NCBI GenBank assembly: GCA_001781465.1 | Contig: MFLD01000043.1 | Span: 767 to 54,248, forward strand | Length of the DNA: 53,482 nucleotides | DNA from: Candidatus Kaiserbacteria bacterium RIFCSPHIGHO2_02_FULL_49_16 | GTDB lineage: Bacteria; Patescibacteriota; Minisyncoccia; Phycocordibacterales; UBA2100 | Direction of reading: 5' to 3' | Part shown: positions 6,635 through 21,389 of the stretch, in pieces | Position numbering within the stretch: the first letter of the stretch is position 1 | Layout of the letters: every line of letters starts with the position of its first letter | Made by a program: the position numbers and the translations under genes | Notes under the pieces: generated by a model | The model's input: only the letters and a program-made list of their open reading frames with translations | Database searches by the model: none | What the model was told of the DNA's origin: nothing

Positions 6635-6678
6635 ATTCAAGGTGCGACCTTGGGTATTTTTAAGGTCGCACCTTGAAT
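6635..6678. repeat. Hairpin ATTCAAGGTGCGACCTT-N10-AAGGTCGCACCTTGAAT in the pdxS/alkA divergent region
   Basis: Perfect 17 bp arms. A related copy with a compensatory change sits inside tsaD (14370-14413). Confidence 0.7.
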
Positions 6679-11037: not shown

Positions 11038-11066
11038 AACCTCCGAAGGTTAAACCTTCGGAGGTT
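11038..11066 (-). terminator. Hairpin after the ABC transporter gene
   Basis: AACCTCCGAAGG-TTAAA-CCTTCGGAGGTT has a perfect 12 bp stem and is followed on the minus strand by TTTG. Confidence 0.5.
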
Positions 11067-13467: not shown

Positions 13468-14742
13468 ATGAAGATATTAGGTATAGAAACAAGTTGCGAC
13501 GAGTCCGCCGTGTGTTTAATTGAAGCGCGAGGAAATTTTGATAAAGATTTTCATTTTCAGATACTCGGAAATTCTCTCATTTCTCAAATTGCGATACACG
13601 CGCAGTATGGCGGCGTATTTCCTAATCTGGCAAAAAGAGAACACGCCAAAAATCTCGTCCCTTTACTTGAACAAACGCTCCTACAATCCGTGACTTCTTG
13701 TCAAGGCGACGCCTTGCCAAAAAAAATTCCAGAGGAGTTGCAAATCCTACTTGCGAGAGAGCGGGCATTATATGAAAAGCTCACCGTTTTTCTTCACAAA
13801 TACGGGAAGCCGGAAATCGATTCTATCGCCGTAACCATCGGCCCCGGCCTTGAACCGGCCTTGTGGGTCGGCGTTAATTTCGCGCGCGCGCTAGCACTGG
13901 TGTGGAATGTTCCGATAATCGCTGTCAATCATATGGAAGGCCATCTTATACTCTCTATGATGGAAATTCAGCCGCATCCAAACTATTCTCAAATTCTCAA
14001 GAATTTGAGAATAGAAGGAAGCATGCGTAGAATTCAGTTTCCGATGCTTGCGCTTTTGATATCCGGAGGACACACGGAATTGGTTCTTTCTGAACGATGG
14101 CAACAATACAAAATCCTAGGTGCCACGCGCGATGATGCTGTGGGTGAAGCTTTTGACAAGGTCGCGCGCTTGCTTGGGCTTCCATATCCGGGCGGTCCTC
14201 AAATTTCTGCGTTAGCGAAATTTGCGCGGAACGACGCAGACTTGACGCAGAAAAACGCAGAAAAAATCAAGCTCCCCCGTCCCATGTTGAATAGTGGCGA
14301 CTTGGATTTCTCCTTTGCGGGCTTAAAAACTGCAGTTCGCAGACTCATTGAATCCGAAGGTCTGACCTTATTAAGGTCCGACCTTGAGACCCCTTTAAGG
14401 TCGGACATTGAATCGGACCTTGACGCATTCAGAATGCAGGTTGCCAGAGAATTTGAAGATGCCGTCACGGATGTGTTAGTCGGAAAAACAATGAAGGCCG
14501 TTGATGAATACGGAATTCAAACGGTAGTAGTCGGAGGCGGAGTTTCCGCAAACTCGTACATCCGCCTTCTCCTTGCCGAAGCTTTAGCGAAGGCGGGTTT
14601 GCCTCCTCCCCTAGTACCCGCTCCAGGACTTGCTACTGACAATGCGCTAATGATCGCGCTCGCGGGATATTTTCGCGCGCTCAATAAAGAGTTTGCCGAC
14701 CCATCTGAATTGCGTGCAAACGGCAATCTGAAACTCGTCTGA
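13468..14742 (+). CDS. tsaD: tRNA N6-adenosine threonylcarbamoyltransferase TsaD, with two insertions
   Basis: MKILGIETSCDESAV, NHMEGH and LLISGGHTEL motifs. At 424 aa it is longer than the roughly 340 aa I recall as typical for TsaD, because of insertions at 13983-14014 and about 14347-14425. Confidence 0.88.
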   Translation: MKILGIETSCDESAVCLIEARGNFDKDFHFQILGNSLISQIAIHAQYGGVFPNLAKREHAKNLVPLLEQTLLQSVTSCQGDALPKKIPEELQILLARERALYEKLTVFLHKYGKPEIDSIAVTIGPGLEPALWVGVNFARALALVWNVPIIAVNHMEGHLILSMMEIQPHPNYSQILKNLRIEGSMRRIQFPMLALLISGGHTELVLSERWQQYKILGATRDDAVGEAFDKVARLLGLPYPGGPQISALAKFARNDADLTQKNAEKIKLPRPMLNSGDLDFSFAGLKTAVRRLIESEGLTLLRSDLETPLRSDIESDLDAFRMQVAREFEDAVTDVLVGKTMKAVDEYGIQTVVVGGGVSANSYIRLLLAEALAKAGLPPPLVPAPGLATDNALMIALAGYFRALNKEFADPSELRANGNLKLV

Positions 14743-14755
14743 TTTACTTTCCATT

Positions 14756-15808
14756 CTATGCCTCTGTGTCGAGAAGATGCTGACGATATTGGACCGATTC
14801 TGTCGGAAGAATATCTTCGCACTCCTCTTTTCCTTCCTCAATTGATTTCCTCAACTCATCTAATCTGCTATATATACTTGGATCATCAATGAAACGAAGG
14901 TTATTCATGCCGAATCTCCGGTCTGGTTCATACCTACGAAAATCATGCGCAACAACTTCGACATCCGCACGCCTCCATTTGCCATGCATGTACTGGTATA
15001 GAAAACTCGCGGTTTCGAGGTACTCTCTAAGGTCCTCATCAAGAGCATAAATCATACCCTTCCAAAAAATGGTCTCCCCTTTATAATTTCTAACAGTTCG
15101 CATGGGCAAAAAGCTCCTTTCTCCTTTTAATTTTATGTAGCCGAGTGGTTTCTGGCGCTCAAAAAGGACTATGCCGCGCCGCGCATGTATTTCAGCGCCT
15201 GGTATTATGTCCAATGTTACGCGATTGATTTCTTCGCAACCGCCACAGTCTCCGATCTCATCAACCTTGGCATTACTGAGAACATTCCAGGAGTCTTCAT
15301 AGTTTATTTGTATTGCACCAAGCATTAAGTCAATTGAGACATCGCGTATACGTATGGAAGATGCTTCAATTTTATGTAAGGGGCTCTTTGAGAAATTTGT
15401 CCAATCGAGACGCGCCTCCTCGAATGTCGAACCAGTGAAATCGGTATTTCGGCAATCTGCGTGAATTAGGCCCGCGCCATTTAAATTATATCCTAGCATC
15501 TCGGTATGAATAATGGACTTACGCGTCAAATTAATATTTGATAGGTTTTTAAGACCATAGTGTATTGCGTCGACTAACGTCTGGTGGCCGAGTTCGCGAA
15601 AAGTAGCTCTGCTTTCCTCTATGTTCACACACATGCGGTGGATGTCAGAGACTTTAACTGCTTGCCGATTCAAGTCGGCTATCAAGTGCTGTGACAGTGA
15701 CTCTCTCTGCTTCAAATGCCCGAAGCGTACGAGTAAATCTTGTGCTTGCTGTTCGGGAGTAGAATCGTCTTTAAGATATTGGGGGCCGCTTTTATATTCC
15801 AATACCAT
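14756..15808 (-). CDS. Hypothetical protein with a short pentapeptide-repeat-like segment
   Basis: NLNGAGLIHADCRNTDFTGSTFEEARLDWTNFSKS resembles A(D/N)LXX repeats. The rest is unrecognised. ATG at 15808 is preferred over the TTG at 15847. Confidence 0.45.
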   Translation of the reverse strand: MVLEYKSGPQYLKDDSTPEQQAQDLLVRFGHLKQRESLSQHLIADLNRQAVKVSDIHRMCVNIEESRATFRELGHQTLVDAIHYGLKNLSNINLTRKSIIHTEMLGYNLNGAGLIHADCRNTDFTGSTFEEARLDWTNFSKSPLHKIEASSIRIRDVSIDLMLGAIQINYEDSWNVLSNAKVDEIGDCGGCEEINRVTLDIIPGAEIHARRGIVLFERQKPLGYIKLKGERSFLPMRTVRNYKGETIFWKGMIYALDEDLREYLETASFLYQYMHGKWRRADVEVVAHDFRRYEPDRRFGMNNLRFIDDPSIYSRLDELRKSIEEGKEECEDILPTESVQYRQHLLDTEA

Positions 15809-15866
15809 AGGGCAATTGTACGACTTGCGGCTTTTTCTTCCAAGCAAATCCTGTTACGATGCCTTA

Positions 15867-21360: not shown

Positions 21361-21389
21361 AACCCAGTGAGGTGTCACCTCACTGGGTT
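21361..21389. terminator. Bidirectional terminator hairpin between convergent genes
   Basis: AACCCAGTGAGGTG-T-CACCTCACTGGGTT is perfect and abuts the stop codon at 21390. Confidence 0.65.

Follow-up and report, generated by a model that had tools for sequence, protein, structure and literature searches.

The tsaD locus and its hairpin tract

We analysed a 53,482-nucleotide stretch of contig MFLD01000043.1 (hereafter the window) from Candidatus Kaiserbacteria bacterium RIFCSPHIGHO2_02_FULL_49_16, an ultra-small groundwater bacterium of the Candidate Phyla Radiation (CPR, Patescibacteria). The genome to which it belongs comprises 904,852 bp in 46 contigs with 48% GC, and the assembly is 90.8% complete. 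The open reading frame (ORF) at 13468-14742 on the forward strand encodes 424 residues and is TsaD by Pfam (TsaD, E = 1.4e-70) and by sequence matches in the PDB (E down to 5e-65). Its AlphaFold2 (AF2) model, with a mean predicted local distance difference test score (pLDDT) of 87.8 and a predicted TM-score of 0.88, superposes on E. coli and Salmonella TsaD structures (3zet/4ydu) with target-normalised TM-scores of 0.86-0.88. Within this gene lies a tract of short inverted repeats, the subject of this report.

The repeat unit is a 13-nt near-palindrome, AAGGTC-N-GACCTT. Three full units and one partial unit are present on the forward strand at 14357-14421, in agreement with an earlier sequence-only reading that had described arms with extra partial AAGGTC/GACCTT units on both sides. 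Unit 1, the outer left arm (AAGGTCTGACCTT, 14357-14369), is read as (E)GLTL and pairs with unit 4, the partial outer right arm (TCGGACCTT, 14413-14421), which is read as SDL. Unit 2, the inner left arm (AAGGTCCGACCTT, 14373-14385; read as (L)RSDL), pairs with unit 3, the inner right arm (AAGGTCGGACATT, 14397-14409; read as (L)RSDI), across a loop GAGACCCCTTT at 14386-14396 that is read as ETP(L). Together with palindromic flanks (TGAAT...ATTCA) the four units make up a composite hairpin at 14349-14431, which encodes approximately residues 295-321 and is slightly larger than in the sequence-only reading. Its minimum free energy is -36.8 kcal/mol as RNA (z = -5.6) and -18.8 kcal/mol as DNA (z = -4.6), and none of 200 shuffles folded as well. 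The pattern AAGGTSSGACCTT, allowing at most one mismatch, gave 10 strand matches in the window against 0.17 expected, a number reached by none of 100 shuffles. The tract is in frame in the 424-aa ORF and encodes the low-complexity peptide EGLTLLRSDLETPLRSDIESDLD, as had been noticed earlier; across the tract the peptide reads LLRSDLETPLRSD(L/I)ESDLDAFR, where L/I is strain variation.

This variation lies at position 14406. The window has A there; C stands in three further assemblies of the species, which are 99.94-99.97% identical to it across 5.5-7.3 kb. It is one of only 2-4 differences between these assemblies over that length. With C at 14406, unit 3 becomes a perfect AAGGTCGGACCTT and encodes L instead of I; with the strain-specific A one pair of the stem is lost, and the stem is less stable by about 6.6 kcal/mol. 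A direct repeat CATTGAATC(C/G)GA, with copies 60 bp apart at 14346 and 14406, was considered as a target-site duplication and rejected: the arms contain it, and it exists as such only with the A at 14406 that is specific to the window, not in the three assemblies with C. An intrinsic terminator was also rejected, as no T run follows the hairpin.

The sequence-only reading had asked whether the insert forms a disordered surface loop. In the AF2 model, residues 297-314 are coil between helices 284-296 and 315-348, and pLDDT falls below 50 at residues 305-313. E. coli TsaD has only a short turn at the insert point in the PDB sequence match. The model fits a tolerated surface loop as the insert site, and the hairpin most likely adds a floppy surface loop to TsaD.

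The insert in TsaD orthologues

To delimit the insert, 29 TsaD genes from 40 related genomes were aligned. The earlier description of the tract as an insertion held: 27 of these genes have no insert at the site and two have unrelated inserts. Most TsaD homologues carry a plain EANSPLTDEMK loop, and orthologues without the repeat also lack the peptide. A protein search nevertheless found that the insert is neither recent nor private, since orthologues with 59-71% TsaD identity carry inserts at the same loop. The nearest non-self relative (69% identity) has the same four-unit insert, and in other homologues precisely this loop holds one, two or three units, or another form with four. Hairpin-derived inserts were found there in homologues P0002, 3, 5, 6, 10, 13, 16, 31, 48 and 59 and in genomes G046, G048 and G063. 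We inspected the DNA of eight insert-bearing orthologues and of these three genomes, and a hairpin is at the site in every case, although one (L039) is visibly decaying. The reading frame is open at the insert in all orthologues. Compared with the plain loop, TsaD is longer by a net 16-17 residues in the window's genome and by 8 in the simple two-arm form. The tsaD insert is thus old and common to several species.

The codons of the insert were compared among the eight insert-bearing tsaD genes by asking how often aligned identical residues share a codon; these pair counts are non-independent, as the sequences are related. Arginine had the same codon in 19 of 19 pairs inside the insert, always AGG (7% of the Arg codons in these genes), against 36% outside. 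For leucine the figures were 39 of 41 inside against 33% outside, and for aspartate 36 of 46 against 54%. Serine behaved differently (36% inside, 45% outside); its third base is the centre N of the unit and varies freely. The arms also carry paired double changes that keep their pairing across orthologues, CCG/CGG in most of them and CAG/CTG in L042, which bears out the compensatory change of the arm centres that the sequence-only reading had proposed. In G048 the arms AAGGCCAGACCTT and AAGGTCTGGCCTT are no longer self-palindromic and are still exact complements of each other. The arms are thus conserved at the nucleotide level, with compensatory changes.

These codon data bear on the idea that the RSDL repeat was selected as a peptide motif with a role in the TsaD protein, the DNA palindrome being incidental. 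RSDL does occur in several host proteins of the family described below and is encoded by either orientation of the unit. Codon choice in the insert is nevertheless fixed on the rare AGG and third positions co-vary between the arms; elsewhere the same DNA unit is read in other frames (GPT, GLT, GRT), the segment is modelled as low-confidence coil, and most orthologues do without it. We regard a peptide motif as very improbable.

Sister sequences occupy the same loop in other lineages. L095 and L096 carry the core AAGGACSGTCCTT there, in stems that fold with -31 and -41.5 kcal/mol. In a TsaD tree computed with the insert columns removed, genes with the insert are scattered, and at least seven changes of state are forced. 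Counting these as seven independent insertions was rejected, as the genes are mosaic. For the first 737 nt, L041, which has the insert, and L097, which does not, are about 99% identical, with 0-4 differences in each 60-nt block. A stretch of about 280 nt containing the insert follows in which identity is about 60-65% (less at the 24 inserted bases), and beyond it identity recovers. In this near-identical pair at least, insert-bearing and insert-free forms differ by a recombined block of about 280 bp. The mosaic indicates that homologous recombination moves the insert-bearing block between co-occurring lineages, and because of it the TsaD tree does not tell how many insertions there were originally.

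Such persistence raises the question whether the hairpin has been exapted, that is, kept as a DNA or mRNA structure for use in tsaD or in the genome. Possible roles include a site bound or processed by the transposase-like proteins discussed below, a recombination hot spot, and a translational pause or stability element. This idea builds on the explanation that we prefer, in which a mobile hairpin entered the loop, and is compatible with it. The arms are conserved while synonymous sites elsewhere in the gene have largely diverged, the double changes preserve arm pairing, a sister-family hairpin occupies the same loop in other lineages, and the insert lies inside the recombined tract of the near-identical strain pair; all of this speaks for a functional element. 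On the other hand, most congeners have no insert, the L039 copy is decaying, the window's own strain has a stem-weakening change, and repeated conversion or re-seeding from other copies could equally give the conservation. Exaptation appears to us unlikely as the account of the tract.

A family of palindromes in the genome

The tsaD units belong to a dispersed family with the core AAGG-xyNy'x'-CCTT. Counting such dyads genome-wide, as the sequence-only reading had suggested, gave 55 palindromic AGGxyNy'x'CCT cores, against 4-10 in third-order Markov simulations (about 6-14 times the expectation). By their inner dinucleotide they split into the sub-families TC, AC, TG, TT and CG. There are 32 AAGGT-NNN-ACCTT sites and about 17-19 double-arm hairpins with matching centres, whose spacers are 5-18 nt long and whose centre pairs are CCG/CGG, GCG/CGC, TCG/CGA, CTG/CAG and GAG/CTC. 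The 13-nt cores extend to perfect arms of 17-20 bp, with fold z-scores from -4.6 to -8.7. Loops and flanks are common to different copies; the loop GGGAATTCTGCATTT, for example, is found in four.

About 20 of the 55 copies are spanned by long ORFs that extend for 40 codons or more to either side. The host ORFs include IleRS, GatA, a P-type ATPase, a cysteine desulfurase, CarB and PurL; outside tsaD and gatA, the coding status of the copies rests on the spanning ORFs. The unit is open in most frames, frame 2 giving RSDL in either orientation and frame 3 giving G(P/R/L)T.

An intergenic sister hairpin lies in the window at 6635-6678, between the divergent genes pdxS (reverse strand) and alkA-like (forward strand). 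It has perfect 17-bp arms, AAGGTGCGACCTT and AAGGTCGCACCTT, with a GCG/CGC centre, and folds with -31.8 kcal/mol (z -8.7). Over 44 nt its local alignment with the tsaD segment 14370-14413 scores 37, against 19-26 for the best scores in 20 simulated windows, so that the similarity reported earlier is far above the simulated background. The tsaD insert had been taken for a copy of this very hairpin, and that claim fails. The intergenic hairpin is the only copy in the genome with a GCG/CGC centre by exact pattern search, and the closest sisters of the tsaD arms (CCG/CGG, CTG/CAG) are in gatA, the P-type ATPase gene, carB and elsewhere. The broader claim, that one element occurs both between genes and translated within an essential gene, stands in so far as the same family is at both places; its translation is predicted from the ORF. 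The intergenic hairpin is not an intrinsic terminator, since no T run follows it and it lies between divergent genes; T runs do follow two single-unit copies elsewhere in the genome (C2:41559 and C46:7990).

The gatA hairpin is found only in genomes G000, G046 and G051 and is absent from the other 25 congeners with a readable gatA loop. For this gene the comparison with congeners is more informative than that with the solved Aquifex GatA.

Among relatives, the 81 genomes of the genus have 0-21 copies of the core each (33 of them have it), and 21 of 121 order genomes have it, with up to 29 copies; a reversed-pattern control gave at most 2 per genome. Several expanded genomes have a single centre type among the places listed, and the centre type differs between expanded genomes. 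This pattern fits bursts within genomes.

Further palindromes of the AGG...CCT group occur in the window. One is a third core inside tsaD itself (AGGCGACGCCT, 13704-13714), in frame and of the CG sub-family (10 copies genome-wide). It codes for part of SCQGDALPK in the variable linker after residue 73, and similar QGDA peptides occur at this linker in some TsaD homologues. Two others, CTCCGAAGGTTAAACCTTCGGAG and CAGTGAGGTGTCACCTCACTG at 11047-11057 and 21370-21380, have no spanning long ORF. A different insertion, the first in tsaD, is NYSQILKNLRIEG at 13983-14014 (residues about 172-183), also in a loop. Many TsaD orthologues have related peptides such as HSNILQNVRMSG in that loop, and PurL of the window's genome contains ENVRMSG; these likenesses suggest another in-frame repeat family.

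Linkage to RAYT-like transposase genes

The genome of the window contains five PF01797 (Y1_Tnp) genes, whose best NCBIfam match is the model for the repetitive extragenic palindromic (REP)-associated tyrosine transposase (RAYT). Each of the five is bracketed by its own long perfect palindrome, a sister family of the tsaD unit. The Y1 gene of contig C7, for instance, is bracketed by ATGTCAAGGTGWCACCTTGACAT and that of C32 by TACCAAGGACSGTCCTTGGTA, of which one more copy lies in frame inside the C32 gene. The protein of the C7 gene contains HRSDL. This was rejected as a hairpin product, being encoded by CAT CGA AGC GAT TTA and not by a hairpin, and is a coincidence or a long-decayed relic.

In five relatives of the genus or order (G058, G041, G036, G103 and G098), RAYT-like genes are bracketed by the tsaD family's own core, AAGGTCNGACCTT. 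The sequence-only reading had not seen a link to such genes. Two of the ORFs bracketed in this way were scanned against Pfam, and both reach the Y1_Tnp cut-off. In at least G058 (gene at L051:1445-2116, copy at 1605-1635) and G036 (gene at L094:971-1645, copy at about 1458), the AAGGTCSGACCTT-bracketed RAYT-like gene also contains a copy in frame (RRGEQGPTLLKR; NEGRTFIEIF). These inner copies have the same relative position as the sister hairpin in the C32 gene. The same palindrome thus flanks a Y1 RAYT-like gene in relatives, and in the window's own genome sister palindromes flank all five. The element is therefore REP/REPIN-like (REPINs being REP doublets that form hairpins).

Duplicated RAYT genes are unusual. 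On contig C11 of G000, two identical 246-aa RAYT-like genes stand in tandem, 1136 bp apart (184-921 and 1320-2057), and each is preceded by the 35-nt palindrome GTTCAACACTCGGTGTTTAACACCGAGTGTTGAAC.

The linkage bears on the possibility that the tract arose in place. Replication template switching or slippage would have built the inverted repeat within tsaD, and its likeness to other hairpins would reflect a shared mutational bias. The number of units varies among orthologues from 1 to 4, a sign of local duplication, template switching can alter both arms in one step, and the gatA hairpin replaces loop sequence and adds little length. A shared bias would have to account for an identical 13-nt core in unrelated genes, at intergenic sites and flanking RAYT-like genes in five genomes, for the loops and flanks that copies have in common (GGGAATTCTGCATTT again), and for a family that is absent or expanded genome by genome, with centre types that differ between the expanded ones. 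We consider an origin in place improbable, and entry of a RAYT-associated hairpin the better account of these data.

Comparison with known repeat systems

Among the closest known systems are the REP/REPIN-RAYT "REPtrons", for example REPs and bacterial interspersed mosaic elements in E. coli and REPINs in Pseudomonas (PMC3116915, PMC3733652, bioRxiv 10.1101/119735). As in these systems, the elements described here are short palindromic hairpin units, often inverted doublets that fold into a larger hairpin. There are several sequence families per genome, each bracketing its own transposase-like gene of the HUH-Y1 type. Terminal inverted repeats and target-site duplications are absent in both, and the distribution is patchy with lineage-specific expansions. 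REPs inside genes have been described in several species, including genes for a tRNA synthetase and for repair (Di Nocera et al. 2013, PMC3733652).

In other respects our elements differ from REP systems. Long ORFs contain about a third of the copies in frame, some RAYT-like genes have a hairpin of their own within the reading frame, the RAYT-like proteins are longer (220-246 aa), and the host is a CPR bacterium. In the one full-text literature search made, no paper turned up that treats RAYT or REPIN together with Patescibacteria, and neither "in frame" nor "Parcubacteria" occurs in PMC6006769.

The second comparison is with the Rickettsia palindromic elements (RPEs), in-frame palindromes summarised in a review of transposable elements of the miniature inverted-repeat type (MITEs; PMC10969869) and cited in PMC3733652. 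Like RPEs, the present hairpins are in frame in unrelated housekeeping genes of a small-genome bacterium, and copies occur both between and within genes; RPEs are translated along with their host genes and are believed to lie at protein surfaces, as the tsaD tract may. With its open frame and its predicted low-confidence coil, the tsaD tract would likewise be an in-frame insertion at a tolerated surface site. By their descriptions RPEs are set apart, as they are about 100-150 bp long and have no linked transposase, whereas here 13-nt units form hairpins of 36-83 nt that are linked to RAYT-like genes. Bacterial MITEs (Correia, ERIC, RUP and others; PMC10969869) are also small non-autonomous repeats able to fuse in frame with host ORFs. 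Unlike the present elements, for which no target-site duplication was found, MITEs descend from DDE insertion sequences and show both terminal inverted repeats and target-site duplications.

Proposed origin and persistence of the tsaD hairpin

We think it likely that a REP/REPIN-like hairpin of a RAYT-associated family inserted into tsaD at a variable loop without disrupting the frame, grew locally from two units to four, and is read through as a disordered loop. Two inverted units around a loop of about 10 nt form a REPIN-like doublet, from which the tsaD copy would have grown. The copy may have been seeded by a RAYT-type Y1 HUH enzyme acting on single-stranded hairpin DNA. With units free of stop codons in most frames and a variable surface loop as the site, the insertion would have been tolerated. 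Translation of the tract would then add about 17 probably disordered residues (about 297-314). Its stem may have been kept through selection, through conversion from other copies, or through templating within the hairpin.

Several observations weigh against this explanation. The elements lack the GTAG/CGTC tag found at the foot of classical REP hairpins, their flanks reading (A)ATTC(C/T)N, CTACC, GAGC and the like. Unlike REPs they are few, with 11 exact cores and 55 copies in the whole AAGG...CCTT group. The RAYT-like proteins score below the NCBIfam curated cut-off for REP transposases. A cognate RAYT in the window's genome was looked for and rejected: among its contigs (90.8% complete) no RAYT-like gene is flanked by AAGGTCNGACCTT, all five Y1 genes being flanked by sister families only. 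The gatA hairpin brings no net insertion relative to Aquifex GatA, so that the element can replace loop sequence and does not simply add to it. Finally, neither for tsaD nor for gatA were alleles found that differ in having or lacking the element while their flanks are identical; for this reason transposition into either gene is inferred and not seen.

A bolder possibility is that in-frame hairpins are more than tolerated junk and that CPR genomes actively keep them as DNA or RNA sites. RAYT-like enzymes or selection would preserve the stems over long divergence, and the sites would serve as processing or recombination points that help alleles of essential genes to move between co-occurring lineages. 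We consider this doubtful.

Downstream of tsaD, an ORF of 350-363 aa with weak pentapeptide-repeat matches (14756-15847, reverse strand) lies between tsaD and valS in L043-L045, which belong to the species of the window. In the relatives L036, L037 and L042 this ORF is absent from the tsaD-valS gap, which holds at most a small ORF (54 aa, in L036). From this comparison the ORF looks like a lineage-specific gene insertion.

Implications

Descriptions of REP-type hairpins usually place them outside genes. The RAYT-linked family of this genome, which has almost no intergenic space, sits in surface loops of essential enzymes (TsaD, GatA, IleRS, CarB and others). An element of this kind is already known, and what is added here is persistence at the DNA level across species at one loop. 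In tsaD the hairpin persists at a single orthologous site, conserved in nucleotide sequence with compensatory changes, and a sister family occupies the same loop in other lineages. The gene thus offers a concrete system for asking how such hairpins persist. For annotation the case is a warning: a low-complexity peptide in a CPR protein, RSDL repeats for example, can be the footprint of a DNA repeat. Such hairpins are also one origin of the insertions, specific to single lineages, by which CPR proteins exceed their homologues in length.

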